Under the pieces are notes generated by a model. The model worked only from the letters and a program-made list of their open reading frames with translations. It ran no database searches and was not told the DNA's origin. DNA of 64,000 nt, taken from NCBI GenBank assembly GCA_963817895.1, contig CAWFQB010000001.1, positions 672,001 through 736,000 of the forward strand, read 5' to 3'. Shown here piece after piece: positions 10,571-32,142 of this stretch (within the stretch, counting starts at the first letter, position 1; every line of letters starts with the position of its first letter). The DNA is from an uncultured Chthonomonadaceae bacterium. Its GTDB lineage: Bacteria; Armatimonadota; Chthonomonadetes; Chthonomonadales; Chthonomonadaceae. Both the position numbers and the translations under genes were made by a program.

Positions 10571-11488
10571 TCATCTTTCGGCAAGCGCCTGATGGCCGTC
10601 ACTGGCGCAGGTTTCCACATAGTGGCGCAACTGATGCGCGGCCAGCGTCTGCATCACAAGAGCCATGTTCAGTTTTTCCAGAGATTGAATGGTGGGCGTC
10701 AGGGAAGAGGGCTGTTTCGGCTCGGCGGTTTGACGCGCGGCCAGAATCTTATCCAGTCCTTTCAGCGCGTCGGTCAGGGCGGCCAGATTCTGTCGCTGTT
10801 TGACGGACGCGAGTTCATACGCCTGCAAGGGGGCGGCGGCGGCATCCAGAGCGTCCACCGTCTCGGCAACGTCTTCGGGGCTGCGGCTGCGGCGCAAGGC
10901 GGCAGTTTTTCAAATCGCGCGCCGTAAAGGTTCGATATGTTTCCTGTCCAGCCCCACCAGATTGGTAAAGCCGGTTCCCAATTCTTTGCCCGCCGCCATA
11001 CACTGCTGCGCGATGGCGCAGGGCTTGCCGACAACGGGGATACGCGCCAGCAAGCCAAGCGTGGGGCTGTGCGCGGCCCTGTCGAGCAGAGGCAGCGCGG
11101 GAGCCATTGCCGCCGCGAAGGTCGCGCCTGCCTGCGATATTTCACCCCCGCGCTTCGCCCCCGGTTCCAGCGCGTCCAAATTTACAGGCGCATGGTCCAG
11201 GCGATACAGCAGCCGCTGAAACGCATCGCGCGGCAGTTGCCCGGAATCCGATTCGGAGGCAGTTTCCGGTATTTGCGACGGGCGCGAAGGGCCGTTCTGC
11301 CGCCCGCAAAAGGGGATTCGCGTATTTGCTGCCGCCTGCGCCCCTGTCCTGTTCGCGCCCCATGACAGCAGCAACCCGGACACTACCAGCAGGCGCAGCA
11401 GCCCTGTGGCCTGCTTTGTTCTTTGCTTTAGGCTGTGCCTACCCCATGTTTTCACTGTGTTCCTCCTGTTGGAATGGTTGTCCGGCAT
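10571..11488 (-). CDS. Exported helical hypothetical protein, last gene of the kinase operon (frameshift near 10915)
   Basis: Starts 6 nt after the kinase stop; hydrophobic signal LLRLLVVSGLLLSW; continues in ORF 10571..10897. Confidence 0.6.
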
Positions 11489-11493
11489 GGTCT

Positions 11494-13509
11494 TCATTTC
11501 GGAAAATGCTTGTTGATGTAGTCGCGGATGGTGTGAGCGTTGTGCCGCTCCAGAACCGTGAATTGCTTTTCGAGTTTTTCCGCGTCGCCGGAAAGGGGCC
11601 GATACCAGGACTTGCCCGCAAAGTAGTCGGCCAATTGATGAACTTTGAAACGGTAGCCATGCGCGGCATACGGCTGATTGCAGGCAACCGTCAAATCCCA
11701 CCGGCTTTTCCCCATCAGGTCCGCGTCGGTCAATTCGCGAGTATTCATCTGCGCAAGCAGTTCGTCCGTTCCGCCGGAAACGCCAGGCGCGGTGTTGTTA
11801 AAAGTCTGTTGATGGGTTGACGGTCGTTTCACAGGATAATGATAAACAGGACGCGGGTCGGGATGCGCTGCGCCTTCCGAACTGCCGCCGCGCGCAAAGG
11901 ACCAGTGATAGGAAGAATTGCCATCGCTGCCCTTTCCGGCAAGCGTATCGGAATCCACCAGCCGTCCTGCTTCCGCGCCGAGCTTCCAGGGCTTGGTGGC
12001 CGGCAGTCTGAGAACGCGCGTTTCATGAAATTGCACTCTTTTACCATCATTGCCCATGTCGCCCGCTGTCGCGATCTGTACCTCGCCCTGCGGATATTGA
12101 AGGGTCATCACGCCCGAAAACGCGCTTCCATGCGTATCTGTCACATCAAGCGCGGCGTCCCGGCAGATACCGAAGGTTCCCGTCCAGTGTCCCATCAGTT
12201 TTGAAGCGGACGCGGTTATGGGCGGCAGAGAAGGGGTGTTGCTCGGATTTGTTTCCGCCGAAATGGGGTTCTCTGCAATTGTTTTCTTCTCTTCTGTTTT
12301 GGGCGCAGGCGCGTCGCCGGTTTTCGAGTCAGTTGTCCCCGTAGTTGAGACAGTTGCGTCGGTATGTGAGTCAGACGGCTTTACAGCAGGAGAAGCGTTG
12401 CCTGCTTTGTCTTCGGATTTATCTACAGGCTTATAGAAAGGCGGCGCGGGAGGATCATTGGCGGCGGTTCGCTTTAGCAGGCCCGCGCTTACCAGTCCTA
12501 CTCCTGCCAGCGCGACAATGCCGATACCCCAATAACTGGCGGCGGGCATACGACGCGCTTGCGGCAACCCGGCCTCCTGTGGAACAGACGATTCCGCCGC
12601 GCCCTGCCGCAAGCGAAGCCTGATTTGCCGCCACTGGGCCTCGCGGCGTCGCTTCCTCCGCGCGCGACTCCCCGGCAAGCGCGTTGCTGAAATCAAGACA
12701 GCAGGCAAAACGCTCCTGTGGGTTTTTCGCCAACGCTTTGAGCAGGGCGGCGTTGATGGATGGGGAGAGGGCGGGCTGCCATTCTATGGGCGGGCGGGGC
12801 TGGTCGCGCAGGTGACACATCAGCAGGGAAATCGGGGAGGCGTCCGCGCTCGCGCCGAACGGAAGCCCGCCGCATAACATCTCATAGGCGACGATACCGA
12901 GCGAGTAAACATCGGTGCGATAGTCAACATCGGGCCGGCCCTCCGCCTGCTCCGGCGACATGTACTCGGGCGTACCCACGATCATGCCCGCTTTGGTCAG
13001 GCGCGTACCGCTGCCGTCCTGTTGCGCCCGCGCATCCCGAAATCCACCAGTTTCACTTGAAGCCCGCCGCCTGGGTCACGGTGCAGCAAAATATTAGCCG
13101 GCTTGATGTCGCGATGGATGATCCCCTGTTCATGCGCGTAATCCAGCGCCTGCGCGATCTGCCGTATGAGAGGCAGAGCCGTATCGGGCGGCAATGCGCC
13201 TGCCGAAGACAGCAGATCGGCAAGGTCGCCGCCTTCGATGAGTTCCATTGTGAAATAGGGGCGCGGGGCGTCCGGCGCGGCGACGGCGTGAATGGTAGCA
13301 ATATGGGGATGGCGCAGGCGGGCGGCGGTACGCGCTTCATTGAGAAAGCGCTGCACGAACTCGCGGTCATGGCACATCTGTGAGGACAGCATTTTCAGCG
13401 CCTCATCGCGGTGCAGTCCCGTATGCCAGGCGCGATACACCTGCGCCATTCCGCCCTCGCCCAACAAAGCGTCCAGCCGATATACATCTATTTGATTGCC
13501 CAATTCCAT
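11494..13509 (-). CDS. Hanks-type Ser/Thr kinase with TM helix and C-terminal YARHG domain (frameshifts near 13030 and 12665)
   Basis: LGEGGMAQVY, HRDIKPANILL, DFG, GTPEYMSPEQ; TM YWGIGIVALAGVGLVSAGLL; NQPYAAHGYRF...YF..KSWY.P. Confidence 0.9.
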
Positions 13510-13557
13510 AGCGCCCTCCGGCTTGAAACGTGTTCCTGTGGCTGGTTAGCTCCGTGT

Positions 13558-14667
13558 TCAGGAAGCGTTGGCTTTCGCGCTGTTGCGCATCAGGTTGAAC
13601 AGAGCCAGCGCGGATAATGCGCCGATTGCCGCGCCCAGAAGCCCGCCGCCAACCAGGTAGCAAAAGGAGGTAATGCACAGCCCCTTAACGTCCACAAAGA
13701 ACATGCCATGCAAATTCGAGCCAAGCGTAAGAACGTCCATGAGCGGCATCTGCATTCCGAGTATGGAGGGCCGCAGCATGAATCCGCCAAAGTTGCCTAC
13801 CAACGCCCCGGCCAGTCCCAGTCCGATCACTCCACCCATAGCGGAACCGGATTTCGACGCTACTCGCGCCGCGCCCGAAACAGGGGCGGGACCGGGCATG
13901 TTCGCGTTAATGTTCGAGCGCGCGGCTTCTTGCGGCGCCGGTGTGGAAGCGGCAGAGGTCTGCACCGTCGCGGGACGGGCGGAGGACATCTCAGGAACCG
14001 CCGGTGCAGGCGGGGAAATAATCGGATGGGGCAGCATCGGCTCGGCAACAGAGGGACGCGGGAAAGTTTCTGCTGCTATCGCGGGGGTTGGCAGCGGACG
14101 CGGCTGGTCACAGGCAGGCGTAACGGAGGGCCTGTCGGCAAAAAAACTGGCATTGGAAGCGTGTGCCGCCTCATCATTCAAATTCGTTCGCGCCTCATTT
14201 ATAGAGATTGCGGGCGGCGAAATGGGAACCTTCACTGCATTGCCCGACACAGACGCATAACCGGGAAGGTCGCCCGATGAACCTGTTTCAGAATTGGCCG
14301 GTAGGTCGTAGTTGGCGGACGCCTCGCGTGAAGTCTCCACAGGGAACGTCGGCGCGGGCATAAAAACAGTCGGCATGTTGCGCGGCAGGGTCAGATTGAG
14401 TTCGCTGCCGCCGATACGAATCACGTCGCCGTCCTGAAGCGTATAACGATCCGCCACGCGCTGATTGTTGACAAGCGTGCCGTTGCGGCTGCTGATGTCG
14501 AGCAGTTGCCATTCGCCCAGCGCGTTGCGCTCCAGCATGGCATGGCGGCGCGATACGGCCATATCCGCTTCGGGCAGCAGAATGTCGCAGCCGTCGCCCC
14601 TGCCGATAAGATAGCGTTCTTTTGAAAGCGGCATGGGTGTGCCGTCCACACTGATTTGTCCTGTCAC
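13558..14667 (-). CDS. FHA domain protein with Pro/Ala linker and C-terminal TM helices
   Basis: IGRGDGCDI...VSRRHA...SRNGTLVN...GDVIRIG; hydrophobic C-terminus. Confidence 0.85.
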   Translation of the reverse strand: MTGQISVDGTPMPLSKERYLIGRGDGCDILLPEADMAVSRRHAMLERNALGEWQLLDISSRNGTLVNNQRVADRYTLQDGDVIRIGGSELNLTLPRNMPTVFMPAPTFPVETSREASANYDLPANSETGSSGDLPGYASVSGNAVKVPISPPAISINEARTNLNDEAAHASNASFFADRPSVTPACDQPRPLPTPAIAAETFPRPSVAEPMLPHPIISPPAPAVPEMSSARPATVQTSAASTPAPQEAARSNINANMPGPAPVSGAARVASKSGSAMGGVIGLGLAGALVGNFGGFMLRPSILGMQMPLMDVLTLGSNLHGMFFVDVKGLCITSFCYLVGGGLLGAAIGALSALALFNLMRNSAKANAS

Positions 14668-14768
14668 GCTGCTGTTTCCTTTCCTGAAGATTTCTCGCGT
14701 TGCGGTATGGCGGGGCGGAAGAAGCCGGTCAAACCCGCCTCTTCCGCGCCAACAATGCCGTCGAAAAA

Positions 14769-17700
14769 CTAACCTTTCTTCTTCGGCTTGTCCTCGTCTT
14801 TCTTGTCTGTCTTGTCTTCTTTCTTCGGCGGGTCCTTCGGCTTCTCTGTTTTATCGGGAGCGCCTCTGCCTGTCTGACCGCTGCCCCTGCCGGGAGAGGT
14901 ATCTCTACCGACAGTGCCACCTCCTCTATTGGGAATAGAATTAGGAGTGCCTCTGCCGGGGGGCGTACCGCCTGTTACCGGAGGTTTGCTGCCCCCGCCA
15001 TTGTTCCCGGCAGACCCCGGTATGCTGCCGGTGCGGGGGGTTGTTCTGACACCGGTACTGCCTGTCGTGGTTCCGGGGATATAGCCGCCCTTTACTCCTG
15101 TGTTGCCGGGGTGTGGGTTGACATAGGCGGTGGGTATCGAAATTTGACGCGCCTTCACCCCCTCAACAACCACGCTTCTGTTGATTCTGGATGGATAGGA
15201 AACGAGCTTGCCGGGGGCTGCGGTTCTGACTACGGCTGACCATCCCATCGGCAGGGGCGGCGTGGGCCTACCACGCCGTTGCACCGACTGGCTTACAACA
15301 AGCCAATTCGGTGTCGGTTGCAGGAAGATGGCATTGCGGGTGTAGCGTTCGCGTCCGTAAGCGGGAATGACAATCAGGCGCTCAAAAACCTGCTGAAAGC
15401 CCCGGTAATCTTTGTTTTTATCTGAGGCGAAAATGTAGCGGACGAACTCGCCGTATTCCGGGTCTTCCGCCACGATGAGACTGGCATCCAGTTTGGGATT
15501 GGGAAGCCAGGCGCGGGCAGACACGACGCCGGTTCCGGGCTGCGGAATACGCTGCGCGGCTTCCACCGCCGCCGCTTCCTGTTCGCTGTCGGTTCCCTGT
15601 TCCACGGTGCGCCAGCGATGCCGCAACTGGCAGGCGCAGGAGTGTGGCCCGGCTTCCGTGACCACCGCCGTGTAGTAGTCGGCGGACAGTCCCTGCTCAT
15701 GGTACGGCAGCGGCTGTCCCATCACGGAAATTTCGAACTGACTGGGGGATTGCTCCGTAGAAACCTGTACGCCGTCCGCCGTGCCGACATTAAGGAATAG
15801 AATGCCCTGCGCGTAATCCATGCCGGTGACGCGCACATTGAAGTCGGCGGCGCGGGTAATATCGGCAACCATGTCGCCGAACGCCTTGCGCGATGCGATA
15901 ATGGGACAGCGGCTCACGGCGTTGTGCATGCTGTTCTGCAAGTCCAGCAGATGCTGAACGCGGTAACGCGCCCGCTCCTCATTCTTCATCTTCCTTAGTT
16001 TGGCCTGCTCCTCTTCGGGCGCGGTTTTGTCTATGGATTCGAGGATTTTGCGGGCGTCCTCGTGATTGAGCAGGGCTTCCATCAGGGGCTTGTCGTCTTC
16101 CACTTCGGCTTCGTAGTCGGCGAGGGCATCGGCATGAGCGCGCGTATTCCCGACGCGCTGATTTTTTTCCACATCCGTCAGCGTATAGTCCACATCCACG
16201 CCGCACTCGTACCGAAACGGCAGCGAACCCGCCAGTTTCTCCTTCGCCTCTTTGAACGTTGCGCTTGCCGACAGCGTCAGGTCGGCGTTTTCGCGCAAAT
16301 CGACAACCTCCAGGGAGTGAATCTGGCTTAGATACCCGCGCAGGTCGTTGTTGGATACCAGGCCGGTGTGGTCGTGTCCCGTGAAATTTTCCACGAACAG
16401 GCGGGCTTTTGCGCGGGGTACAAACGCGGTAGTCCCTGATTTCAGCAGTTCCGTCGAACGCTTGACCACGATCTGGTTGACACTGCCATTGTTATAGCAG
16501 ACAACCATGCCCTCCTGAACATAGTTTTCGCAGGGGCCGCTGACGGACGTGAACGTTCCTTCCGGCGAACCGAGCGCCTCATGCGCTTCGGCCTGTGTGC
16601 TGCCGACGTGAATGCCGCCGACGCTTCCCGCGTCGGCGCCGGTGAGCATCAACATCTCACAAAGCATGGCGGCATCCGGGTTGACAGAGGGACGCATCAG
16701 CGCGGTCAGCCCCTGCCGGTCATATTCCCACGCCTGGCTGCCGTTGGCAACATCTTTGATGCTATCGGCTTTGCCGACTTTGGCTTCCACTTGCGCCTGC
16801 CCGTCCAGTACGGCGATATTATCGGCGATCTTGAGGTTCGCGATCTTCACGAGATGCAGTTTGTCACAGGCGACGGCATTGTCGCGGTCGTAAGGGTCAG
16901 TTTTGTAGGTGTTGATCAGGGCTTCCGCTTCGCCGCCGGACAGGTCTTTCTTAACATGAATGGGAATGGGGCCACTGCCGAGCGCGGCGACAGGCACGCT
17001 GCAAACAACGATGCCCGCCGCGTCCGCTGTCCACGTTTGACCGGGCGCGGCGGGCGTTGTGAGAACGCTTCCGGGCTGTGTCGTGACCTGCACATCCACA
17101 GCATTATGCTCTATGGACACGGCAGTCGGATCGGGTTTGGAAAACACCACGTCCTTGTATATTGTTTTCGCGGTAGTCGAGGCCGGCTGCGGCTTTGTTT
17201 TGGGCGTGGCGTTGCCGCGCTGCCCTGCGCCCGTTCCGGGCAGGCCGGCAAGCGCAAGATGCGAGGGGTTCCCGCTCTCCTGCCAGACGGAGTTTTCCAA
17301 CCGGGAAGGAGTGTGGGCCAGGCGCGTGGAAGGCGCGCGCGTGGACTCTTCGGAGTAGATGGCAATGCGACGCCCGTTGAATTCCTTTGAAGGCCCAATG
17401 CCCTCGGAGGGGACGTACAGGCTGGCTGTATCCGCGTTCGCCACCTGCCAGTGCTTGCTCTCGCCGTCGGCAAAGGCGATGTCAATGGCGACCGGCAGGG
17501 GGCCGATTTTCTTCAGGCTGACGTGTCCCTGCGCGTCCGTAATCAGGGGCGCGTTGGGCGCGTCGCCAATGACAACATCCTCCTCCTGCCCCGGACGCGG
17601 CGTTTTTCGGTGTATGGTGGCGATCACGCGCAGCCCCGCAACCGCCTGCTGCCGGGGGTCCACAAACGACAGGGTTGTATCCTGATAGTTCGTTTTGACA

Positions 17701-18077
17701 ATTACAGTTTCAGGCACTTTGACAATGACCGGCTTTTTGCTGCCCCGTTTAGGCGGGAGGGTTTTTGTTGACGATGGGCGGCGGTAAATATGCTGCCCGT
17801 ACATAGCAGAAGCCACCTGCATGTGGCGCTGCTGGTGAAACTGCGCGACTTCTGCTGCGTACTGCTTATGCTTCTCGCCGTTCTTCTTGTTGTAGGCATC
17901 AGTGGCGTGAACTGCCACTTTGGTCGCGTGTTTGAGAGGAATGGAGCTTGGCAGACCTGCCAGAAGTTGGGCTTTCGTAGAGTCAGAATCCTCGCCCTTC
18001 ACCAAAGCGGCACTGCCCGCAAGGGCGAGAAGCGCCAGGGCGGCGAGAGGATGAAGGCGTATTTGAAGCGGCATCAT
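14769..18077 (-). CDS. Large secreted multidomain hypothetical protein (1102 aa)
   Basis: Uninterrupted ORF; signal peptide; beta-rich domains; Gly/Thr/Pro- and Lys/Asp-rich tail. Confidence 0.8.
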   Translation of the reverse strand: MMPLQIRLHPLAALALLALAGSAALVKGEDSDSTKAQLLAGLPSSIPLKHATKVAVHATDAYNKKNGEKHKQYAAEVAQFHQQRHMQVASAMYGQHIYRRPSSTKTLPPKRGSKKPVIVKVPETVIVKTNYQDTTLSFVDPRQQAVAGLRVIATIHRKTPRPGQEEDVVIGDAPNAPLITDAQGHVSLKKIGPLPVAIDIAFADGESKHWQVANADTASLYVPSEGIGPSKEFNGRRIAIYSEESTRAPSTRLAHTPSRLENSVWQESGNPSHLALAGLPGTGAGQRGNATPKTKPQPASTTAKTIYKDVVFSKPDPTAVSIEHNAVDVQVTTQPGSVLTTPAAPGQTWTADAAGIVVCSVPVAALGSGPIPIHVKKDLSGGEAEALINTYKTDPYDRDNAVACDKLHLVKIANLKIADNIAVLDGQAQVEAKVGKADSIKDVANGSQAWEYDRQGLTALMRPSVNPDAAMLCEMLMLTGADAGSVGGIHVGSTQAEAHEALGSPEGTFTSVSGPCENYVQEGMVVCYNNGSVNQIVVKRSTELLKSGTTAFVPRAKARLFVENFTGHDHTGLVSNNDLRGYLSQIHSLEVVDLRENADLTLSASATFKEAKEKLAGSLPFRYECGVDVDYTLTDVEKNQRVGNTRAHADALADYEAEVEDDKPLMEALLNHEDARKILESIDKTAPEEEQAKLRKMKNEERARYRVQHLLDLQNSMHNAVSRCPIIASRKAFGDMVADITRAADFNVRVTGMDYAQGILFLNVGTADGVQVSTEQSPSQFEISVMGQPLPYHEQGLSADYYTAVVTEAGPHSCACQLRHRWRTVEQGTDSEQEAAAVEAAQRIPQPGTGVVSARAWLPNPKLDASLIVAEDPEYGEFVRYIFASDKNKDYRGFQQVFERLIVIPAYGRERYTRNAIFLQPTPNWLVVSQSVQRRGRPTPPLPMGWSAVVRTAAPGKLVSYPSRINRSVVVEGVKARQISIPTAYVNPHPGNTGVKGGYIPGTTTGSTGVRTTPRTGSIPGSAGNNGGGSKPPVTGGTPPGRGTPNSIPNRGGGTVGRDTSPGRGSGQTGRGAPDKTEKPKDPPKKEDKTDKKDEDKPKKKG

Positions 18078-18089
18078 TGTGACCTTTCA

Positions 18090-18113
18090 CACTTCGGCAG
18101 TTCTGCCGAAGTG
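18090..18113. repeat. Short intergenic palindrome
   Basis: CACTTCGGCAG-TT-CTGCCGAAGTG. Confidence 0.6.
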
Positions 18114-18129: not shown

Positions 18130-19505
18130 CTACGGCATCGGCTTATTCAAATTTTTATCAATCAAAGCTTTCAATGGAATTAAATCGCTATCTTCGGGAA
18201 ATAGCTCGGTCGCATGGCGGACAGTATTCTGAGCAGCCTTATAGTCCTCCAGATAGTATTGAGCGCGTCCCAGTTGTACCCAAGCAACCCGATTGACGCT
18301 GTCTAATTCAATTGCATGGCTCGCATGCGTTTGCGCGCGTCGCGATTCTTCATCGCAAATGGTCAGTTCTTTTTCCGCATCTTCTCGCGTCAGTTTGCCC
18401 TGTTCCTTGCGGGCTGTCAAATTGAACCGACGCGCGCTCACATCATTTACCAACTTTTTGAACTCTGCGCCTCTTGCTCTGCCAGCCTGCCGGTTTGCGC
18501 GTTCTGCCAGGCGCGTCCGGCGAACAGGGAACAGGCGGCGAGGACAAAGCACAGGGCCACGAGCGCGGGCGTTTTGGAAGCGCGGGGCGCGAGGGGCGTT
18601 GACCTGACGGCGACAGGCTCCGGCAGCGAGGCCGCTGGAATCGGTCTGGGGCGGGGCAGGGCGGCGGCAAGCGCGTCCACGAAGGCGGCGCAGCAGGCGA
18701 AGCGCTCGGCAGGCGTTTTGGCAAGCGCGGCGAGGATCGCCGCGTCAACCCCGGCAGGCAGATCGTGAACATGGCTTGAGGGCGGCGCGGGCAGGTCGCG
18801 CAGATGATTCATGATGATGGAAATCGCCGACACGCCCGCGCCACCCTGAAACGGCGGCTGCCCGCACAGCATCTCATACGCCACAACCCCGAACGAGTAG
18901 ATGTCGGTATGGTAGTCTATTGTCGCCTTGCCTTCGGCCTGTTCGGGCGACATGTATTCCGGCGTACCCACAATCATGCCCGCTTTGGTCAGGCGTGTGC
19001 CGCTCGCGTCCTGCTGCGCGCGGGCAATCCCGAAATCCACCAACTTTATCTGCGCATCGCCGTGTTCTCCCGTGTGCAGCAGGGCGTTGGCGGGCTTGAC
19101 ATCGCGGTGAACCACGCCCTGCCCGTGCGCGTAATCCAACGCCTCCGCCATCTGTCGCAGGATGGGCAGGCACTCGCGCAACGACAAGCGCCCCTGCCGC
19201 GCCAGCAGGTCGGACAGGTCCCGGCCCTCGATCAGCTCCATCGTGAAAAAGGGCTGTGGCGCGTCGGGTTCGCTGACCGTGTAAATGGTAGCGATATGCG
19301 GATGCCGCAGACGGGCGGCTGTGCGGGCTTCGGTGATGAACCGCTCCACAAAGTTGCGGTCATGCGCCAGATGCGGCGGCAGCAGTTTCAGCGCCTCGAA
19401 CCGGTGCAACCCGGTATGCCAGGCCTTAAATACCTGCGCCATGCCGCCCTGCCCCAGCATCTCCTCCAGCCGATAGGGTCCTATTAAATCTGCTTGTGTT
19501 GTCAT
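18130..19505 (-). CDS. Hanks-type Ser/Thr kinase with TM helix and C-terminal TPR (frameshift near 18455)
   Basis: LGQGGMAQVF, HRDVKPANAL, DFGIAR, GTPEYMSPEQ; TM; TPR AWVQLGRAQYYLEDYKAA...ATELFP. Confidence 0.9.
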
Positions 19506-19549: not shown

Positions 19550-20806
19550 CTACCGCATATCAGCCTTCTGCAGTTTCGCCGCCCTCCGCTGCGCGTCAGG
19601 CTGGTCTTCCGTATCTGTCCCTCTTCTCGGATGGGCGCTTGCAGAACCTGGGGGGCGAGGTTCTTCCTTTCCCTGCTCAGGGGCAGGCGGGCCAAAAACG
19701 GGCATTTTTTTGCTTTGCGGAACCGTTTTTGCAGGGGCGTGAACAGCGCTTATCGGCGTTATAGCGTTCGTCTGCGTTATAGCCGGGTAACGCAGGCGCG
19801 CAACGGCCAGGCCAATAATAAAAAATGCCAGGCCGCTCACTGTCAGCAGCATGGGGCGCAGCGCGCGGTTGGGATCGTGAACGCCTGAAGCGGTTTCCCT
19901 GTTCGGAAGCGCGGCGGGCGGAAATTCCTTCCCCTTCCAGGTCGGCGGCTTGCGCGCGATGGTTTGCGGCCTGCCTTCACAGGCGGCGACAAGCGAGATG
20001 TTGTCGTGTCCGCCGCGTTCGCGCGCCAGTTTCACCAGATTGTCGCAGGCCGTCTGTAAATCCGGCGCGGCAACAAATTCATCGCGCATCTCTTCGGGCA
20101 TCACATACTCGCTCAGGCCATCCGAACACAGCAGCAGCGCGTCGCCGGGTTCCCATGCTCCCTGATACAGGGAAGGTTCCACATCGGCGGCGATCCCAAT
20201 GGATTTGGTGAGCTGATTGCGCAGGTTGGAATTACGGGCTTCGTCCGGCGTCATGGTGCCGCGCCGAACCGCCTCTCCCACCCACGAGTCGTCATCCGTT
20301 AGTTGGCAGATGCCGCTCCGGGTCAGCAGATACGCGCGGCTGTCGCCGACATGCGCGATGGTATAATCCCGCGTCCGGCACAGGCACAGGGTCAGCGTCG
20401 TGCCGGGGTGCGCCACGCCCTGCCCGCCGTACCCGAATACGGCCTGATTGATACTGCGCGTAACCGCCACAGCGCGTTGGGCAAGCCGCGCCTCCGCTCC
20501 CGCTTCCGGCCCCCCGGTTACCATCTCGTCCGCAACTGTATGAGGAGAAAGGAAGGCTTGCCGCGTCATTTCTCCCGCAAGGCCGCTGGCAACTTCCCCC
20601 GCCTGATGCCCGCCCATGCCGTCGGCAACCAGCAGCACGGCAATCAGGCCGTCGGGGTTGGCGGCAGGGGGCGAAACCGCTTCCGCCACAACCGTATCTT
20701 CATTTATTTCACGGACGCAGCCCACGTCCGTAGCGCGGCCAATGTTCATCGCTTGTTTGCATCCTGACTTTCGCGGCGCCAACTTATGGACAAACCACTT
20801 GGACAT
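19550..20806 (-). CDS. PP2C/Stp1-family Ser/Thr phosphatase with a C-terminal TM helix
   Basis: TDVG.VREINED, VADGMGGHQAGEVAS, HVGDSRAY, LCSDGL, GGHDNIS. Confidence 0.92.
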   Translation of the reverse strand: MSKWFVHKLAPRKSGCKQAMNIGRATDVGCVREINEDTVVAEAVSPPAANPDGLIAVLLVADGMGGHQAGEVASGLAGEMTRQAFLSPHTVADEMVTGGPEAGAEARLAQRAVAVTRSINQAVFGYGGQGVAHPGTTLTLCLCRTRDYTIAHVGDSRAYLLTRSGICQLTDDDSWVGEAVRRGTMTPDEARNSNLRNQLTKSIGIAADVEPSLYQGAWEPGDALLLCSDGLSEYVMPEEMRDEFVAAPDLQTACDNLVKLARERGGHDNISLVAACEGRPQTIARKPPTWKGKEFPPAALPNRETASGVHDPNRALRPMLLTVSGLAFFIIGLAVARLRYPAITQTNAITPISAVHAPAKTVPQSKKMPVFGPPAPEQGKEEPRPPGSASAHPRRGTDTEDQPDAQRRAAKLQKADMR

Positions 20807-20929
20807 TGTACAATCCCGCGTCCGTAGGACGCTTGGCGGAACGCCACTCAGACGGGTGTTTTCAACACTCGGAACCCCGCCATAGTACAATCTTTATCTG
20901 GTTTGTCCATTAGAGCCTATCCCAATTGG

Positions 20930-22817: not shown

Positions 22818-25162
22818 TCAGTCGTGCGTTCGATCCCGCGCTGCCAGCGTCAAATACACAGCCGCCCCGGTTCCGCCCACCATTGCCATTAACACGCACA
22901 GCGCGACAAGGGGCGAGGTATGGAACACATCCTGCGTCTGAGAACCCAGTCCCACATCCCGCCAGCGGTCCGCCACGTTCGCGCTTCCGCACAGTCCGCC
23001 ATACGCCCAGCGCATGCTGTTCAGGCCAGCGATTGCGACGAACAGCGCGTTCATCTGTTCCAGTGGAATCAGGCCGGAGAAAATCACCTGCATCAGCAGG
23101 ATCAGGGCCACAAGGGTTATCGCCTGATCGGGCGACGAGGCGCCGCGCCGACACCCACAGACCCATCAGGACGGACATAAAGGAACCGGCGGCCAGAATG
23201 GAAAATAGCAGCAGCATCCGGGGGGCGTCCAGATGAAAATCAATTTTCAGGCACACCGCCGCCAGCAAAAACAGACTCTGGAGTACGGCCACAATGCCTA
23301 AAACCACCATTTTGGAGCCGATGTACGGCCCGATTTGCAGGGCGACATGCCGTTCCCGATGGTAGATGGCCTTTTCTTTCACAATTTCACGGCAGGCGTT
23401 GCACAGTCCGAAGCAGGTCATGCTCAACGCCAGCAAAAACAGCAGGCGCGGGGCGTCCTGAACGGGAAAATTGCCTTTGCTATCCGCCGTCTGCGCGGAA
23501 GCGAACGTGTCCGCCTTGAAGAGGAAGGCCACGATCAGGGCGACCAGAGGAACCTGCGCCATCCAGATTGCCAGATTGCGGGTGTCGCTGCGGATCACCT
23601 CCAGGTAACGGCAGGTGAGCGCGCTTAATTGCCGCCATGCGGATTGTCGCGGGCGTGACGGCAGCAGGCGCGGCAAGGCTGCGCCCGCAGTCGAACCCGA
23701 ACCGGCAAACGGCGAAGAAGCCGCATCCAGATAAGGAGATTTGCTTCCCCTCGCGATGCTCAGGGTGGCAGAGCCGGTGGCATTGAGCAGGTCGTACACC
23801 GCCGCGTAATCGGCAACGCCGAAAAAGCGGGGCGCTTCGCGGGGCGGGCCGCAGTACGCCAGCCTGCCGCCCCGCGCCATCCAGATCACCTTGTCGTACT
23901 CTTCCAGCGTTTGAACGGAGTGCGTCACCGTAATAATGGTTCGGCCCTCCCTGGCGAGCGTCCGTAATTGCTGCGTGACGCGCCGTTCCAGGCCCGCGTC
24001 CAGCCCGGTTGTCGGCTCGTCGAGAAACAGGATACTCGGACGAGTCAGCAATTCCACGCCGATGTTGACGCGCTTGCGCTCGCCGCCGCTCAGGGTCCGT
24101 ATCAGGCTGCTCCGCCGGTGTTCCAGTTCCAGTTCCGTCAGGGTTCGGGCGATCATGCGCTCGATTTCGGCTGCCGGGGTGTCCTGGGGCAGCCGGAGCA
24201 GCGCGGCATAGCGCAGCGCGCTTTCTACCGTCAGTTCCCCATGCACGATGTCGGCCTGCGGCACATAACCAATGGCGGTACGGAACAGATCGGGCGCGTC
24301 GTAGAAGTCAATGCCGTTGAGCAGCACCTGCCCCGATGTGGCGGGCTGATAGCCGTTGAGCGCCAGCAGGAGGGTGGTCTTCCCGGCCCCGCTCGCGCCC
24401 ACAATGGCAACGAGTTCGCGGGGATGAATGGTCAGCGAAACATCTTCCAGCAGGGTCAGCGCCTGCCCGTCCTTGCGAACGGTTCGCGTCAGGTTCCGGG
24501 CGTCCAGTCGAATCTGCCCCGTCTCATCATCAACAGCGACGTTCTGGTCGCCGAGATGAAAGCGATTCAGTCCGATGCGAACGCGGTCGTCCCGGCCTAC
24601 AAAGGCTCTGGTCACGCGCTGTTCGTTCAGAAACGTGCCGTTTGTGCTGCCCAGGTCTTCCAGCAGCCAGCCAGCCGCTTCGCGAGTTCAGGCGCGCGTG
24701 ACGCCAGGAGACGCCGGACGTGTCCAAAACCACATCACTGGCCGGGTCGCGCCCTATCAGCAGGCTTTGCCCCGCGCTGATACGGGCGCAGGGCAGCGTC
24801 AATGTGCGCCCGTTTCCCCCATCCGCCCGTTGTCCGGCGGCTTGTAAGTCCGGTTCCGAAGGCAACGCCCTGTCTGCGCGGCACACCAGACAGGCATCGC
24901 CAATGGTCAGGGTATCCGAAGGCGCAAGCGTGGCGGCGGTATGAGGCGGAAGCATGGCATGGTTGTGCCAGGTTCCGTTTGTGGAGCCGGAATCCATCAC
25001 GGTGTAGTGGCCGTTTCGGACTTCAATGCAGGCGTGATTCCATGAGACGCCGTTTTGCGCCAGACACAATTCGCATGCCGGGTCGCGCCCGATGCGCAGG
25101 CCCGCCGGAGGAATTTCGCGGCATTGCGCTTGCAGCGCGTCATCTTGCCATTGAAGGTACAT
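22818..25162 (-). CDS. FHA-FHA-ABC ATPase-ABC2 permease fusion, Rv1747-like (frameshifts near 24670 and 23140)
   Basis: Two FHA domains; GASGAGKT, LSGGERKR, FLDEPTTGLD; permease segment REIVKEKAIYHRER. Confidence 0.9.
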
Positions 25163-25211
25163 AGGAAATGCCTGTATCGAAAATAGCCGTACTTGCAGGA
25201 AAAGCGCTAAC

Positions 25212-26271
25212 TCAACAGAAACTTATCGCAAATTGGCCGGCAGCCAGGCCATCGCTTTTGGACGCTTTCACTCCGAATATGGATTTCGCGGGAACCTCGG
25301 AAGATTTAATCTCTGTTCTCTGATAAGCATGGCGGCGCTGACCCGCCCAGCCACGATCATCGCGTCCTGTGTCTATTGCGCCCCGCGCTTTCAGGAGCCG
25401 CGCGATTTTTGAATATTTTGACTGGTTGGCGATATGCAGGGGCGTGCCGCCGATTTCATGGCAGAAGCCGCCGGGTATCATGCGCTTTGTGCCGATGAAA
25501 CTTTCGGGATTCAGCTTCACATGCTTTCTCAGCAGCATTTCAACGATGGGCAGGCTTTCTGCTCGGACTGCCGCGTGAAGAGGCGTCTCTCCGTATTCGT
25601 TCGCGAAGTTTACGTTTGCGCCGCTCTCTATCAGGACGCCGCGCCGTTTCCACCTTGCCGGACGCGCAGGCGTAATACAGCGGCGTGGCGTTGTCATAAC
25701 CGCCTGTCAAATTCAAGCGCACGCCGTATTGGATCAGCAGTGCCGCCATCCCCGCGCCTCCCTGTTCGCCGACAAAATGAAGTGGCGTCTGATTCCAGCG
25801 AGTTTGCTGCGAGTTGACATTCGCGCCATGCTGAATGAGCAAGCGGGCAATCTCCAGATGTCCTGTTTGCGCGGCCCAGTGCAGCGGCGTGCCGGTCATG
25901 CCATCGTCGGAAATCAGACAGCCGCCATTACGGGTATCGTTAACCGCATCTACTTTGCTGCCTGCCAGCAGCAACAGTTTGACGGCTTCGATACTGCCGC
26001 CGAACACGGCCCCGTGCAAGGGAGTTCGGCGTCTTTCATCGGTTTCATTCACATTGGAACCGGCGGCAATCAGTTTTTTCACCTCCGGGGCCTTGCCGGC
26101 AAAAGCCGCATCATACAAAGGGATGCCATTGCCTTTGGGAGCATGCGCCGATATAAACTCACTGGCGCTGAAATCGTCTGCCTGCGCCGGCGGCACGCGC
26201 CACGCGCTGAAAACGGCCAGGCAGGTGATGGCGCAAACCACAACAAACACTCGTGAGCGGCAGAGAATCAT
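25212..26271 (-). CDS. Secreted ankyrin-repeat protein (frameshift near 25640), first gene of the leftward operon
   Basis: Signal peptide; repeated TPLH.A...G..E..KLL...GANVN motifs. Confidence 0.9.
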
Positions 26272-26370
26272 GGCGGCAGCCTTTGAATACAGAACGAGAA
26301 CAGAAAGCGGAGGAGAGGCTGGACTGAGGCTCGACAGGAAGCGACAGGAGTGAAAGCCAATTATTCAGCC

Positions 26371-26416
26371 ATCTTAACACGTTTGCATGAACGCCTGCAT
26401 GACAGTTACATGACAA
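26371..26416 (-). promoter_or_regulatory. Putative SARP/OmpR-type direct-repeat operator plus -10 element for the leftward operon
   Basis: Minus strand: TGTCATG-TAAC-TGTCATG-CAGGC-GTTCATG-N9-TAAGAT. Confidence 0.55.
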
Positions 26417-26508
26417 ACGCGGAAATCAACAGGAATTTACGCGCGAAAGGAGTAATATTTTAGTTGGTTGGTCGCGCTGTAGATCGAAACGCTGAACGGA
26501 GAGCAAGC

Positions 26509-28320
26509 ATGCCCGCGATTTCGGAGAATGGGAAGCCTGTCGGAGCGTCATTATGTATCCAACTGTTCGGAGGGCTGGAGGTAAGCCGGAACGGTCAGCC
26601 CCTGCGCGGCCTACAGGATCGGCAGGGTGAACGTTTGCTGGCGTACCTTGCCCTGCGCAAAGGCCGAAGCGTTGCCAGCGCCACGCTTGCGGGCGTGTTC
26701 TGGCCCGCTACCGAGAGTCTGGACAGCCTGCGCCAGGCATTGCTGCATTTACGGCGCGTGTTGGGCGAGGAGGCGGGACGGCTGGAAACCGCGCGGGGCG
26801 TGGTCAGCCTGAATCTAGAGGGGGCATGGGTGGATGTGGACGCCTTTGACGCCGCCATTGCCGACAATACGCCGGACGCGCTGCGCCATGCCGTAGATAT
26901 TTACCGGGGGCCGCTGCTGGACGGATGGGCGGAAAACTGGCTGGATAAGGAGCGCAAGAAACGCGCGGAGGCGTATGTCGAAGCGCTGTACGCGCTTGCC
27001 CAACACGCCCTGAGCGCGTCGGATTACCGCCTGGCCGCGAATTGCCTGCATAAATACGCCCGCTGCCGTCCCGGCCATGAGCGCGGCTGGCTGGAATGGA
27101 TGCAGGCGCTGCATAAAAGCGGCGAACGCCTGGCCGCTCTGGAAGTGTATCATAAATACCGCGACTATCTGAACCGCACCCATAACCTTGTCCCGCCGCT
27201 CGACATGACTGCGCTTTACCATGACATTCAGGCGGGCGAATTGCCCGCAATTGCGGCTGTCGCCCCCACACCCGGCGGCGTTGCCGATTCCGACGCGGAA
27301 GAGACTATCGGCGGGGCCATGCCGCTGAAATCGCCGTTTTACGTGTCGCGTCCCATTGACGCGCAGTTTCAGGCCGCTATCGCCCATCAGGAGAGCATCG
27401 CGCTGGTCAAAGGGGCGCGGCAGACAGGCAAATCTTCGCTGCTGGCGCGCGGGCTGCATCACGCCCGCAAGCGCGGCGCAGCCGTCGTGATGGTCAGTTT
27501 TGAAACGTTCAGCGAACAGGATTTACACTCGATGGAGGCGGTCTGCCTGCGGCTGATTACCTGCCTGTCGGACGCGCTCGATCTGGAATTTACCCCCGCA
27601 GTGGACTGGAATCCCCTGCTTGGCCCCAATGTGAACCTGGAGCGGTATCTGCTGCGGCGCGTGATGACCGCGATTTCCGCGCCGCTTGTCTGTGGGCTGG
27701 ACGAATTGGACCGCCTGTTCGCGCGCCCCTTCAGCGGCGAATTCTTCTCCATGCTCCGGTCGTGGCACGAAAAACGGGCGTTTGAGCCGACAAAGCCCTG
27801 GAAGCGGCTGACGCTGGCGCTTACCTGCGCGACGGAAGCCCACCTGTACATCGCGGATGTGAACAAATCGCCGTTCAATGTGGGCGCGCGGCTGATGCTC
27901 AACGATTTTACGCTGTCCGAAGTGGAGGAGCTGAACCGCTGTTACGGCCTGCTCCTGAACCCGGAAGAGCTGTCGGCGTTTTTTGAATTGACGGGCGGGC
28001 ATCCCTACCTGACCCGGCTTGGCCTGCGCGAAATGGCGCGCAGGGAACCGCCCCGCGTAGGCGATGTGGCCCAACTGGAAGCCTGCGCCCTGCGCCCCGA
28101 CAGCCCGTTCGGAGATCACCTGCGCCGACTGGAAACGCTTCTGGAAGAGTCGCCTGCGCTGCGGCAGGCGACTGCCGATGTTCTGCTTGGACGCTCCTGC
28201 GCGGAAGAGAGTTTCCTGCGCCTGCGCAGCGGGGGGATTCTGCGCGGCGAAGACAGGGAACACGCGCTCCTGCGCTGCCGCCTGTACGAAGCCTACTTGA
28301 GAAAGCAAATGCGCCTGTGA
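26509..28320 (+). CDS. SARP-family (wHTH + BTAD) regulator fused to an AAA_35 STAND-like NTPase
   Basis: IQLFGGLEV, LLAYLAL, WVDVDAF, YRGPLLDGW; then GGAMPLKSPFYVSR, GARQTGKSSLL, LDELD, SPFNVG, TGGHPYL. Confidence 0.9.
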   Translation: MPAISENGKPVGASLCIQLFGGLEVSRNGQPLRGLQDRQGERLLAYLALRKGRSVASATLAGVFWPATESLDSLRQALLHLRRVLGEEAGRLETARGVVSLNLEGAWVDVDAFDAAIADNTPDALRHAVDIYRGPLLDGWAENWLDKERKKRAEAYVEALYALAQHALSASDYRLAANCLHKYARCRPGHERGWLEWMQALHKSGERLAALEVYHKYRDYLNRTHNLVPPLDMTALYHDIQAGELPAIAAVAPTPGGVADSDAEETIGGAMPLKSPFYVSRPIDAQFQAAIAHQESIALVKGARQTGKSSLLARGLHHARKRGAAVVMVSFETFSEQDLHSMEAVCLRLITCLSDALDLEFTPAVDWNPLLGPNVNLERYLLRRVMTAISAPLVCGLDELDRLFARPFSGEFFSMLRSWHEKRAFEPTKPWKRLTLALTCATEAHLYIADVNKSPFNVGARLMLNDFTLSEVEELNRCYGLLLNPEELSAFFELTGGHPYLTRLGLREMARREPPRVGDVAQLEACALRPDSPFGDHLRRLETLLEESPALRQATADVLLGRSCAEESFLRLRSGGILRGEDREHALLRCRLYEAYLRKQMRL

Positions 28321-31300
28321 ACCGCAACATCAATAGTCCGCCGCCCGCTTCTGCCGCCGCTTTGTCGCTGCCTGAACCCTGTTCCCCGGCAGCGGACAGC
28401 CGCGCTGCGATAGCAGACAGCCGCGCTACGGGAGAAATGCCCGCCGTCGCTTTGCCGCCGTTCTACGTTACGGGCGGCTCCCTGCCCGAAGACGCCTGCT
28501 CCTACGTGGAACGGCAGGCGGACCGCGACCTTCTCACGGCGTTACGGGCGGGACAATTCTGCTATGTGCTGGATTCGCGGCAGGTGGGGAAATCCTCGCT
28601 GATGGTGCGCGCGGCGGCCAAACTGCGGGCGGAAAACTGGCGCGTGGCGGTGCTGGATTTAAGCGCGTGCGGCCAGAATGTTTCGCCGGAACAGTGGTAT
28701 TTCGGCATGTTATTCGCCATCGGGGATCAGCTGCATATCGAGGACGAACTGGAAGCCTTCTGGGGAAAACACGCCGGACTGGGCCTCGTGCAGCGCTGGA
28801 TAGAGGCGGTCGGGCAGGTCGCGCTGGCGCAATCGTCCGAACCGCTGGTGATCTTTATTGACGAGATTGACGCGGTGAAAAGCCTGCCGTTTTCCGCAGA
28901 CGAGTTCTTTGCAGCCATTCGCGAATGTTACAACCGTCGGACGCGGGACAGCGCGTTTACGCGCCTTTCGTTTTGCCTGATCGGGGTGGCAACGCCCTCG
29001 GAACTGATTCAGAACCCGCACACGACTCCGTTCAACATCGGACAGCGGATCGCGTTGCTGGATTTCAGCGAAGCCGAAGCCGCGCCGCTTGCTGTGGGGT
29101 TGAGCGCGGGGTCGGGACACGGCGCGGCCCTGCTGGGGCGCGTTTTGCAATGGACAGGTGGGCATCCGTATTTAACTCAGATATTGTGCCGGTATCTGGC
29201 GGAACAAAACAGCCTGCATACTATCAAAGACGTGGATCAAGCCTGCCATACGCTATTCCTGACCCGGCAGGCGCGAGAAACCAACGACAACCTGACGTTT
29301 GTGCGCAAGCGCCTGTTGGGGGATTGCGTTTCGGACGCGCAGATCGCCGAAATGCTCCACTGCTACCGCCGGGTGTTACGCGGGCGCGGCAAAATCCTGA
29401 ACGATCCAACCGATCCGCTTGTCACTACGCTGCTGTTGTGTGGACTTGCGCGGGCCGTGACGTATGAGCCGGAAAGCGCGCTGCGCGTCCGCAATCGGAT
29501 TTACGCGCGGGTTTTCAATGAACAATGGGTACTCGACACCCTGCCGGACGCCGAGCGGCGACGCCTGCGCGCGGCGATACGGCGGGATGTGGCGCGGGCT
29601 TCGATTTCGTGGCTGACCGCCGCGCTTGCGCTGGCGATTGCGTCCTGGCAGTTTGCTGTTGCTCGCAATGCCGCGCAACAGGCCGCGCAGAGTCGGGATC
29701 AGGTGCAGCAGAACCGCGTGGCAATGGAGGAGCAGCGCGCAAAAATCGCAGGGTATCAGCAGAATATAATGAGTTTAAGGCAGCAAAAAAACGAAACTCA
29801 AAAAGTTGCTGAAATGGTAGGAATTGCAAGGCAGCAGGCGGAACGCCGCCGGGAACAGGTGGAACGCGACTCGAAGCGCGTTAAAACCGACGCGGATAAA
29901 TCTATTCGAGAAGCGATTACCGCGACACGGGCGGCGAATGCCAGAGAACAGGCTGCGACGCGGCGCGCCTCCCTGGCGGAAACACGCGCCGATAAAGCGC
30001 GTCAGGTACAACAGCAACTACTCCCCGAAGCGGGGGACGCAATGCTGGCAGGCGAACTGACGACCCATCCCGGACATGAAATTGACGGCCTGCGGCTTGC
30101 CGCCCGTACTATCGAAACTGTAGAAAAAGCAGCATCGCGCGCCGGCCCGGTACGCCGTTCAAGCGCTCGTGGACGCGGTGGCGGTGGGCAAATTTCGCCT
30201 GATGCGCCTGATGCAGGAGGGCGCGGTGATTACCGCCCGCTATTCGCCCGACGACGCCCGGATTCTCACGGCGGGAACGGATCGCTACGCCTACCTGTGG
30301 GACGCGCATACCGGCAAACTGCTGCAAAAAATCGCGGCCCAACCCATTCCTGACAATCAGCAAAGCAATCAAAAATTATCCAACATAAACTCTGCGGAAT
30401 TCTCTTTTGATGGCAAGAATATCCTTACAGCGGGAGATGATAAAACGGTACGCATCTGGGATGCCACAGATCCGCGGCCAATGGTAGAAAAGCCACTCCT
30501 GACGCTGAAACAAGCCTGGACTCCTCAATTCAATGCCTCCTTTTCTCGCGATGGCAAATATCTCGTAACATCTGGCCCCGGCAAATACGCAAGCATCTGG
30601 GATTTGCAGACACGACAGATAGCGCATATACTGAAACCGGCCAACCAACAGGCGGATTATGTCTGGTCTGTTGCTTTTTCAGACGACAATAAGCATGTCG
30701 TGACAGCCGGGCAAGATGGGACTGTCAATGTATGGGATGTCGCAACCGGTTTGCAGCAGGCTGATTTCCGTCGGCACCACGGCCCTGTATTGTCCGCCAT
30801 TTTCAACCGATGGGGAAACGTGGTCATTTCCACCGGGACGGACAAGACCGTTCAATCCTGGAACTGGACGGACCCGAATACTTATGAACGTTACCGCGAT
30901 TATGTGGGGCATCGCGACTGGGTCTGGTCAGCGGCGCGTTCGCGAACCGGGGATGTCAACTATCTGGCGACCTGCGGCAGGGACGGAAATATCTTCATCT
31001 GGAACTTTGATCGGGACATCGCGCCGCTGTATACCATTGATACCCATGCCGGAACCGTGTACGACGCGCAGTTTTCCGGGGATAACACCCGCCTGGTCAC
31101 GGCGGGCAGCGACCATATTTCGGAAGTGTGGTATTTCCCCATTCCCATTCTGTTGGGCCTGGGGAGCCATATTACGCATGTGGAGTTTTCGCCGGATGGG
31201 GCGCATACGCTGGTTTCCAGCGCGGACGGGCATGTTTATCAGGGAAGCATCCATGCGGGAACCGGCCAACTGCGTTTCGATGGGGATGGTCGGTCGGTTT

Positions 31301-32142
31301 TCTGCGCCGGTTACTCCCCGGATGGGAAGCGGATTGCTGCCGCAGGCGCAAACAACCTCCCGCGCATCTGGATTCCGCAGCCGGCTATCAGCGCGCAAGA
31401 CGGATACTTTCAAGAGTTGAAGGGCCATTCCAAAGAGGTTTACAGCATCGCCTTTTCCTCCGATGGTTCGCAGGTGATTACCGCCAGCGCGGACGGCGCG
31501 GCGAGAATATGGGACGCGCTGACAGGAACCTGCCTGCAAACCCTCAACGCCGACGCGGGACCCGTCCTCTACGGCGCTCTTTCGGGCGACAAAAAGACCG
31601 CGCTGACCGCCGGCAGGGACGGTTCGGCCCGCCTGTGGGACGCGCGAACCAAAACCGTCCTGCATACCTTCACGCCCGCCCGGTCTGTCGGCAGGAGCGG
31701 CAAGCCCCCTTCCGATTACCCCAATACGGCTGTTTTTTCCCCGGACGCCCGGCATGTACTGACTGCCGACACGAACCATCAGGCGTACCTGTGGGATGTA
31801 AAAACGGGGCAGATGGAGGCTGTGTTGAGCGGGCATACGGACAGCGTTCAATCCGCCTGTTTTTCTCATGACGGGAAGCGTATCGTTACGGCCAGCCGGG
31901 ATCAAACCCTGCGGCTATGGGATGTGCAGGCGGTATTGCAGGCGGGCAGGTCGAAACAAACGCCCGTGCCGCTGTTTCACATCAACGTCGGCGGCAGGGG
32001 CGCGATGTCCGCCTGTTTTTCCCCGGATGGCCGGCAGATTCTTGTCGGCTGCTACGATGGCACGTCCAAACTGTACCCGGCAACGCTGACCGCCTTCCTT
32101 CACAAAGCCCACGAGATACTACAGCAAGTTCCCCCGCCGTAA
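28317..32142 (+). CDS. AAA_35 NTPase - TM - coiled coil - WD40 propeller protein (frameshift near 30130-30170)
   Basis: GGSL...YVERQAD, SRQVGKSSL, FIDEID, TPFNIG, GGHPYLTQ, VRNRIY; hydrophobic segment; many GH...WD repeats. Confidence 0.9.

Follow-up and report, generated by a model that had tools for sequence, protein, structure and literature searches.

AfsR, the PknF-Rv1747 couple and paired STAND NTPases are known systems, and each part of the locus described here works like one of them. The locus is a 21.6-kb block, positions 10571-32142 of the window, that is, of the whole 64-kb stretch of DNA that was analysed (G000:C1:672001-736000, from a 7.5-Mb, 81% complete genome of Armatimonadota, hereafter G000). 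Two rightward genes, one for a SARP activator fused to an AAA_35 STAND NTPase and one for an AAA_35 NTPase with a transmembrane (TM) helix and WD40 propellers, stand back to back with a leftward run of nine genes for Ser/Thr kinases, a PP2C phosphatase, FHA-domain proteins, an FHA-ABC exporter and other exported proteins. The block is a true insertion that joins two portable modules; these are separately conserved and locally grafted, and the result is a real, locally wired and not a conserved system. That the join is functional in this genome is the reading toward which we lean slightly.

The likeness for the winged helix with a BTAD domain, and for a SARP fused to a STAND NTPase, is provided by the AfsR/afsS system of Streptomyces coelicolor and by EmbR. 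The repeats of SARP promoters are 11 or 22 bp apart and stop some 8 bp short of the -10 element (PMC10936776, PMC10972967); in those of the AfsR-like type, 11-bp direct repeats closely precede it, as here (PMC10936776). AfsR is phosphorylated by Ser/Thr kinases (PMC10972967), and Ser/Thr kinases are encoded nearby in the island as well. Unlike in AfsR, the NTPase of the island is AAA_35 and not NB-ARC, the activator is devoid of a TPR sensor, the box sequence (GTCAYG) is different, and sensing falls to a separate STAND-WD40 protein, anchored in the membrane and encoded by the adjacent gene.

Adjacent gene pairs of STAND NTPases with WD40 repeats were reportedly noted by Leipe and colleagues in 2004 as the Npun2340/2341 family. 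The structures nearest to the model of the SARP-fused NTPase of the island, 2qen and 2fna, fit what we take to be the MNS clade, making AAA_35 a candidate member of that family. Npun2340/2341 is a named family of MNS-clade STAND NTPases, and the SARP output, the TM anchor and the operator go beyond what its description gives (PMC8195603). The same source presents the nSTAND2 system, two adjacent STAND genes with a predicted hetero-oligomer and variable effectors on one partner; there, one partner is inactive and the effectors are GT4 and HEPN, whereas both Walker motifs are intact in the island pair and the effectors are others. Identity with nSTAND2 was rejected: only AAA_35 and AAA_16 appear at E<0.001 in Pfam, and both island NTPases possess the Walker A lysine and the Walker B acids.

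For the leftward genes, a close parallel is PknF-Rv1747 (PMC3138270, PMC3908365): the island exporter has the same chain, FHA-FHA-nucleotide-binding domain (NBD)-ABC2, near membrane kinases. This chain reads as a single one across two frameshifts, next to a Ser/Thr kinase gene. The bare two-gene form of the couple occurs in G002 and G020, whereas the island exporter is embedded among a PP2C, two more FHA proteins, two kinases and three exported proteins. The threonine phosphorylation pathway of the H1 type VI secretion system (H1-T6SS), with PpkA, PppA, Fha1 and TagQRST, is similar in its membrane kinase, PP2C, FHA protein, ABC component and envelope partner. It differs from the island in two respects: in G000, in agreement with the first-pass annotation, which reported no T6SS structural genes in the window, neither TssC nor Hcp was found (the genome being 81% complete and other core genes not searched), and the FHA proteins fall far below the TagH cut-off. 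New in this locus are an AAA_35-SARP operator with exported-protein targets and a family of FlgT/CsgG-like proteins with a TM-TPR partner. Neither was found in print, and no description of the whole combination, which the first-pass annotation had not recognised as a named system, turned up in a literature search lacking most subscription journals; the supplements of PMC8195603 may list such neighbourhoods.

Insertion and assembly of the block

The site of the block is empty in both congeneric genomes (2/2). In G002, 91% complete, the orthologues of the gene ending at 10469 and of the antitoxin gene at 32258 are only about 420 bp apart, and in G001, 97% complete, the flanks meet, with a subtilase gene abutting a helicase gene. 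Both halves of the block are jointly absent from these genomes, and the limits of the insertion are those that had been drawn for a self-contained island from the letters alone. A single insertion event is not demonstrated because the block ends share no repeat longer than 9 bp and no integrase was seen among the block genes. The GC content over 10 kb is high (0.60-0.61 vs 0.568 ± 0.017) and the tetranucleotide distance lies in the 87th-97th percentile, but the in-frame GC content at third codon positions is ordinary (0.66-0.77 vs 0.68 ± 0.05, leaving out the PP2C and TM-2xFHA genes, for which the values were computed out of frame); hence, a distant donor is not claimed.

Five genes are split by frameshifts: the ankyrin gene (~25640), the FHA-ABC gene (~24670 and ~23200), the kinase 1/TPR gene (~18460), the kinase 2 gene (broken twice) and the AAA_35/WD40 gene (~30200). 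These breaks are very likely assembly errors and, because the G000 assembly is rich in frameshifts, not a sign of decay: frame changes were also found in 17 of the 51 orthologues of congeneric genes elsewhere in the genome, about one break per 2.4 kb. Pseudogene decay was accordingly rejected, intact homologues aligning straight through the breaks of the island genes. At the ankyrin break, a single short-read contig of run X1 (depth 2.9) is one base shorter at 25639; the short-read contigs are short, and none spans the whole block.

To the left of the insertion, 8761-10479 encodes an exported TM protein with a Gly/Asp/Phe-rich tail and no Pfam family, with an orthologue (77%) in G002 and none found in G001. 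At the right edge (32283-32895), a Phd/YefM antitoxin gene is followed by a small ParE-like gene that is degraded or different in G002. An intergenic element of about 50 bp (8509-8562) has several copies in G002 at 92-96%, and a similar repeated element connects the empty site of G002 with window positions 51877-52081.

The AAA_35 pair and its predicted operator

The SARP-AAA_35 gene (26509-28320, plus strand) encodes a winged helix and BTAD followed by a C-terminal AAA_35 STAND NTPase, without a sensor domain; its stop codon is overlapped by the start of the second gene (28317-32142, plus strand), the product of which consists of an AAA_35 STAND NTPase, a TM helix, a coiled coil and WD40 propellers. 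The first protein had been labelled a SARP activator, and the label is borne out by Pfam (BTAD, E 2.8e-16), by profile matches of positions 3-244 to EmbR (2fez, E 8e-22) and AfsR (8hvr, E 4.3e-21), and by a predicted model with a mean predicted local distance difference test score of 89, the front of which matches AfsR and EmbR. The assignment to STAND NTPases also stands: the fold of the SARP-fused copy, in which helical and winged-helix domains come after the P-loop NTPase, is nearest to the archaeal ATPases 2qen (E 7.9e-9) and 2fna and also resembles MalT (8bob), CED-4 and Apaf-1. Both partners keep Walker A and B motifs (GARQTGKSS and LVCGLDE, DSRQVGKSS and IFIDEID), the first Gly of Walker A being missing from sensor-type AAA_35 throughout the examined set.

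The AAA_35 family is represented in 33 of the 201 genomes of the phylum, and the 25 matches in G000 fall into about 11 loci, one of which is the island pair. Two types recur as neighbours. The short type ends in AAA_35 and varies in its N-terminal part, which can be SARP, class III cyclase, cyclase-TIR or TIR; the long type begins with AAA_35. Behind the NTPase, 22 of 24 long-type proteins have a basic patch and a hydrophobic helix (mean hydropathy >=1.5); this conservation of the TM helix agrees with the earlier description of the AAA_35-WD40 protein as a membrane sensor. Across the class, a membrane STAND-propeller receptor might switch a cognate sensor-less STAND protein with interchangeable outputs (SARP, nucleotide cyclase, TIR). 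In a tree of 18 effector-type AAA_35 domains, the copy from the window fell into no supported group. Elsewhere in G000, three consecutive AAA_35 genes (C2:628253-633424, L013), the first with an N-terminal domain that we take to be EAD1-like, lie beside a MoxR-like/vWA-like set and resemble a conflict system. The genome also contains 30 SARP winged-helix starts, many on frames of 900-1270 aa, a large expansion outside actinomycetes.

The divergent spacer of 237 bp, read toward the leftward operon, holds GTCATG-N5-GTCATG-N5-GTTCAT, 10 nt, TAAGAT, 100 nt and the ATG of the ankyrin gene. The repeats (26387-26414, minus strand, 11-bp period) are the predicted SARP operator and the hexamer (26371-26376, minus strand) the predicted -10 element, an arrangement with the published geometry of SARP promoters (PMC10936776). 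The proposal of a SARP activator facing the operon thereby gains the support of a predicted promoter of the matching type that points into the operon. A strict dyad, a pattern defined post hoc, lies above 5/6 SARP-AAA_35 genes as compared with 1/24 other SARP genes of G000, and above none of the 11 AAA_35 genes read without a winged helix. When hexamers were counted without bias upstream of 19 SARP-AAA_35 genes from other genomes, CGTGAC came out as the top hexamer at lag 11 (4/19), with a maximum of 2 at any other lag. With a matrix built from 8 sites of other genomes, the window site scores 13.85, a value reached by 7 of 3131 background upstream regions; in G000, scores of 10.7-20 were obtained for the remaining five SARP-AAA_35 genes.

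On the side away from the SARP gene, TAnnnT is present 10 or 21 nt past the repeats (spacings chosen post hoc) at 7/14 sites, including that of the window, vs 1.5% by chance, and at 2/4 additional sites (L169 and L170 but not L168 and L172). Box and -10 element together have nine matches across G000, six of these at AAA_35 loci, two of which overlap. The paralogous SARP-AAA_35 genes face signal-peptide genes, the genes at paralogous boxes begin with signal-like sequences, three box-facing genes end in a tail that is presumably PEP-CTERM-like, and prepilin-type genes adjoin. Judging from the repeats and the -10 hexamer of the spacer and their match to the box shared by other SARP-AAA_35 genes, the SARP activator probably drives the kinase operon in G000, along with several other targets, most of which encode exported proteins. 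Candidate regulon boxes in G000 lie at C5:511105, C5:517380, C9:89700, C10:71114, C10:73273, C1:1629454 and C3:114730, before PEP-CTERM-like, prepilin-type/DUF1559 and other exported-protein genes.

The phosphorylation operon and the 1102-residue protein

All nine leftward and both rightward genes have the positions and domains reported at first pass, as a Pfam search confirmed, and a TM scan located the helices where that annotation had placed them. The run on the minus strand opens with an exported ankyrin-repeat protein (25212-26271), followed by the FHA-FHA-ABC-ABC2 exporter of Rv1747 architecture (22818-25162), a protein with a signal or TM segment, a periplasmic domain, a TM helix and two cytoplasmic FHA domains (TM-2xFHA; 21014-22795), a PstP/Stp1-like PP2C phosphatase with a TM helix (19550-20890, the actual start probably being at 20800-20745) and kinase 1, which is linked by a TM helix to a periplasmic TPR-like helical module (18130-19505). 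Next come the 1102-aa exported protein (14769-18077), an FHA protein with a Pro/Ala-rich linker and two C-terminal TM helices (FHA-TM; 13558-14667) and kinase 2, with a TM helix and a YARHG domain (11494-13509). The motifs of both kinases (catalytic) and of the PP2C, ABC and FHA domains are all intact, and intergenic gaps measure 5-101 nt, except for about 100-260 nt, depending on the start, before the TM-2xFHA and PP2C genes. The last gene had been correctly recognised as encoding an exported helical protein, which belongs to no family; its structure requires correction to a single gene (10571-11488) with an in-frame TGA at 10910-10912, a position that the homologues in G281 and G239 extend across. 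A GC-rich hairpin without a U tract (14690-14730) separates the 1102-aa-protein and FHA-TM genes.

Parts of this operon recur in other genomes, in the orders FHA-ABC, TM-2xFHA, PP2C (G215, G254), TM-2xFHA, PP2C, FHA-TM, kinase-TPR (G281) and ABC, helical protein, TM-2xFHA, PP2C, ankyrin (G279), with shorter forms in G177, G100 and G280 and a kinase with FHA-ABC alone in G002 and G020. The kinase/TPR gene precedes a gene of the 1102-aa family and then FHA in G003, where the orthologue of the FHA-TM gene follows the big gene, and is followed by the 1102-aa-family gene, kinase/YARHG and an amidase gene at L065. Architectures are intact in the homologues of kinase 2 (L065:7186-9033), of kinase 1-TM-TPR (G003, G149, G117, L065) and of the exporter (752-820 aa in G215, G020 and G002, an intact homologue aligning end to end). 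The exported helical protein has matches in 13/401 genomes and is encoded near FHA, ABC and PP2C genes in G279, G281 and G100; an Atlas search with a homologue gave only leads below 0.9. The ankyrin protein has a 69% paralogue at G000:C6:385955. Because cell-wall enzymes are encoded in or beside many homologous operons, namely, Amidase_3 (L065, L088), GH3 (G254, G281), NlpC/P60 (G279), YkuD/M14 (G254), PGA_cap (G177) and M28, a role of the operon in the envelope can be inferred. In one homologue, L116 (G254:C65), genes for four or more kinases take turns with those for the cell-wall enzymes GH3 and YkuD/M14. Other FHA/PP2C/kinase clusters of G000 (C5:73779-82932, L024; C10:210705-213457, L025) are probably housekeeping ones.

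Neither Pfam nor NCBIfam has a family for the 1102-aa protein. Its predicted model (mean per-residue confidence score 75) comprises a signal peptide, a long helix, a disordered tail and several domains: apparently two immunoglobulin (Ig)/transthyretin-like ones (~124-245 and 304-411), a BLIP-like YjgB/YfeY domain (412-544; YjgB Z 10.9), a CsgG/TolB-N/PelC/TraT-like domain (553-747) and an FlgT-C-like barrel (747-860). FlgT is the best Foldseek match, to model residues 553-860 (8z5n, E 9.8e-9; 3w1e, E 6.3e-8), and residues 553-747 match CT253 (Z 11.2), the CsgG complex (Z 11.1), PelC (Z 9.2) and TraT (Z 8.7) with root-mean-square deviations of 3.1-3.8 over 113-121 aligned residues. In its model, the protein thus appears to share with FlgT the CsgG-like middle domain and the C-terminal barrel; unlike FlgT, CsgG, TraT and PelC, to which it is 8-13% identical, it has an N-terminal half of Ig-like and BLIP-like domains and a kinase-TPR partner. 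The FlgT N-terminal domain is lacking, and no flagellar or curli gene context was seen at the loci of the family, the neighbours being kinase and TPR genes.

The family comprises 3 matches by word search and 114 representatives by profile, and is present in 11/401 phylum genomes; of 31 loci picked up by a DNA pattern scan, 4 are genuine members. No Pfam or NCBIfam family exceeded its cut-off in the protein or 52 homologues, apart from a TPR match in a single homologue and a borderline score for BamE, and weak FlgT_C scores in Pfam were obtained for 3/52. A search of PDB sequences with the family profile gave nothing below E 0.1, Atlas no usable match, and a metagenome scan with alignment A1 no relative. 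A Gly-rich hydrophobic hairpin is inserted in the CsgG-like domain of 42/53 aligned members and, by analogy with TraT, is likely a membrane anchor.

Among the 14 other loci of the family, the upstream gene is visible at 10, and at 9 of these it encodes X-TM-TPR, where X is a kinase in G003, G149, G105, G117, G065, L065 and L067, a zinc ribbon in G109 and another domain in G227; in G261, an insertion sequence lies upstream. The pair of G065 (TPR and big gene) is divergent and was excluded from the final TPR alignment. Because the TPR module is the constant part of the upstream gene, it is suggested that this periplasmic module and the 1102-aa-family protein act together; a complex prediction for the big protein (30-862) and the TPR module scored 0.00 and speaks neither for nor against this. 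Around other members, a vWA-PP2C-kinase triad directly precedes the TM-TPR and big-protein genes in G227 (L043:15414-19999 and L044), which have a coupling-protein-like ATPase gene and an RHS/Hint locus behind them; a homologue in G261 (L045:12942-16888) is followed by two FtsK/SpoIIIE ATPase genes; and in G281 (C204, L051), a tandem pair of family genes precedes kinase-TM-NTF2-like and M28 peptidase genes.

A proposed grafted circuit and alternatives

If the two modules work together in G000, the AAA_35-TM-WD40 protein would sense something beyond the inner membrane via its propellers and, as AfsR and STAND biology suggest, co-oligomerise through its STAND domain with SARP-AAA_35, freeing the SARP domain; the latter would then bind the 11-bp repeats at 26387-26414 and, given the geometry of the spacer, activate the leftward promoter. 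The target operon could maintain or remodel the envelope through Ser/Thr phosphorylation, as a circuit made up of two membrane kinases (one with periplasmic TPR, one with YARHG), a membrane PP2C, three FHA-bearing readers including the Rv1747-type exporter, and exported proteins, among these the FlgT/CsgG-like protein, whose gene is constantly paired with that of the TM-TPR module.

Several observations weigh against this scheme. The operator repeat, like similar repeats above paralogues, was initially spotted by eye, and the spacer length was picked afterwards, which makes the statistics optimistic; the site is present in 8/19 training regions, two of these being orthologues of G000 paralogues; with a matrix from 29 other SARP genes of G000, the window site scores 6.35, a value reached by 21% of the background; and a shuffle test for fixed-lag triple repeats was not significant (229/1000). 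Since the operator also resembles what we take to be the Pho box consensus, a PhoB/OmpR-type regulator, or else a paralogous SARP, could bind it instead. The leftward run of 16 kb may be several transcripts, and a sigma70-like site precedes the PP2C gene (20909-20882; 5 such sites were found vs 4.9 expected). Cell-wall hydrolase genes are missing from this copy of the operon, and in its 1102-aa protein a charged insert of 62 aa replaces the hydrophobic hairpin of the family. Neither AAA_35 nor BTAD was found in the DNA around 14 loci of the 1102-aa family (at least 15 kb upstream being covered at 5 of these) and 7 operon-core loci, the AAA_35 matches of G149, G227, G105 and G065 being on other contigs or megabases away from the 1102-aa-family gene. 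Conversely, FHA, PP2C, FHA-ABC and 1102-aa-family genes were not found around 11 AAA_35 loci, one of which has a NERD-kinase neighbour, and 16 more, the analysable part of 20 further SARP-AAA_35 loci. Many contigs in both sets are short, and these negatives mean that linkage was not found rather than that it is absent. The first-pass annotation had proposed a complete circuit; as a conserved entity, it is not supported, the linkage of the modules having been found in no other genome examined, an outcome that the annotation itself had named as a refutation.

The same lack of linkage fits a view of the modules as chance neighbours at an insertion hot spot, where control by the SARP pair extends no further than the ankyrin gene, or only to the pair itself, and the operon has its own promoters. 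The abundance of AAA_35 in G000, ankyrin genes near other AAA_35 loci as well, the possible internal promoter before PP2C and the block ends devoid of long repeats and integrase all agree with this view, but the operon has an ankyrin gene with it, and no AAA_35 pair, in G105, G109 (divergent) and G279 (within the run), the gap between the ankyrin and FHA-ABC genes is 49 nt with no terminator-like site inside, and both congeners miss both halves together; we consider chance neighbourhood rather improbable. A device of the immune type, with the block an anti-invader or conflict island that senses phage or competitor molecules and induces envelope countermeasures, differs from the grafted circuit only in what kind of signal is sensed. 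Defence-associated STANDs include sensors of the STAND-WD40 type (PMC12803255), the pairs of other loci carry TIR, cyclase-TIR and EAD1-like N-termini, a cyclase-type pair lies beside the NERD-kinase gene (L093), and the operon of G215 comes after BrxC/D-like genes. The output here, however, is a transcription activator and the box targets are exported proteins, while PADLOC has no family for either AAA_35 domain and only generic kinase matches, making this device unlikely.

More unlikely still is the idea that the operon is a module for post-translational control that became separated from a contractile injection system, either a T6SS with PpkA/PppA/Fha1/TagST-like control or the extracellular contractile injection system (eCIS) that G000 encodes about 400 kb away. 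The parts list is, presumably, similar to that of H1-T6SS; two operon-type genes of G281 lie 3.7 kb from Pvc16 and sheath genes, and a sheath gene is present in 6/18 genomes with operon-type genes vs 27/201 genomes of the phylum. This excess is mild, however, and the genomes are related and non-independent; the other 12 of the 18 gave no sheath match, G002 has sheaths without the block, TssC was found in 0/5 genomes, and to this are added the missing TssC and Hcp matches in G000 and the low TagH scores mentioned above.

Returning to the grafted circuit, a broader proposal is possible, if on balance doubtful: AAA_35 pairs could form an unrecognised class of transmembrane signalling systems, the SARP versions of which control operons for exported proteins via the GTCAYG box, and in this block the pair would induce a second undescribed device, an FlgT/TraT-like envelope ring the state of which the kinase TPR module reads across the periplasm, the signal being passed to FHA readers and the exporter. 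If so, the little-studied AAA_35 proteins gain a testable job, as a STAND-based alternative to two-component systems, and for the AAA_35-SARP system an operator and a small set of target promoters are already predicted. Through the link of the 1102-aa family with the TM-TPR kinase module, Hanks-type kinases might keep watch on the outer envelope, a candidate route in a phylum of diderms for which genetics hardly exists. The 21.6-kb combination itself is a one-off, and would matter mainly as a case of a portable regulator capturing a new operon.

The eCIS-type locus of G000 (C1:283000-308000, L183 and L184) comprises a sheath gene, two tube genes, the eCIS core, PAAR and a gp25 baseplate gene, and eCIS-like genes are also present in G003 (C219) and G281 (C442).

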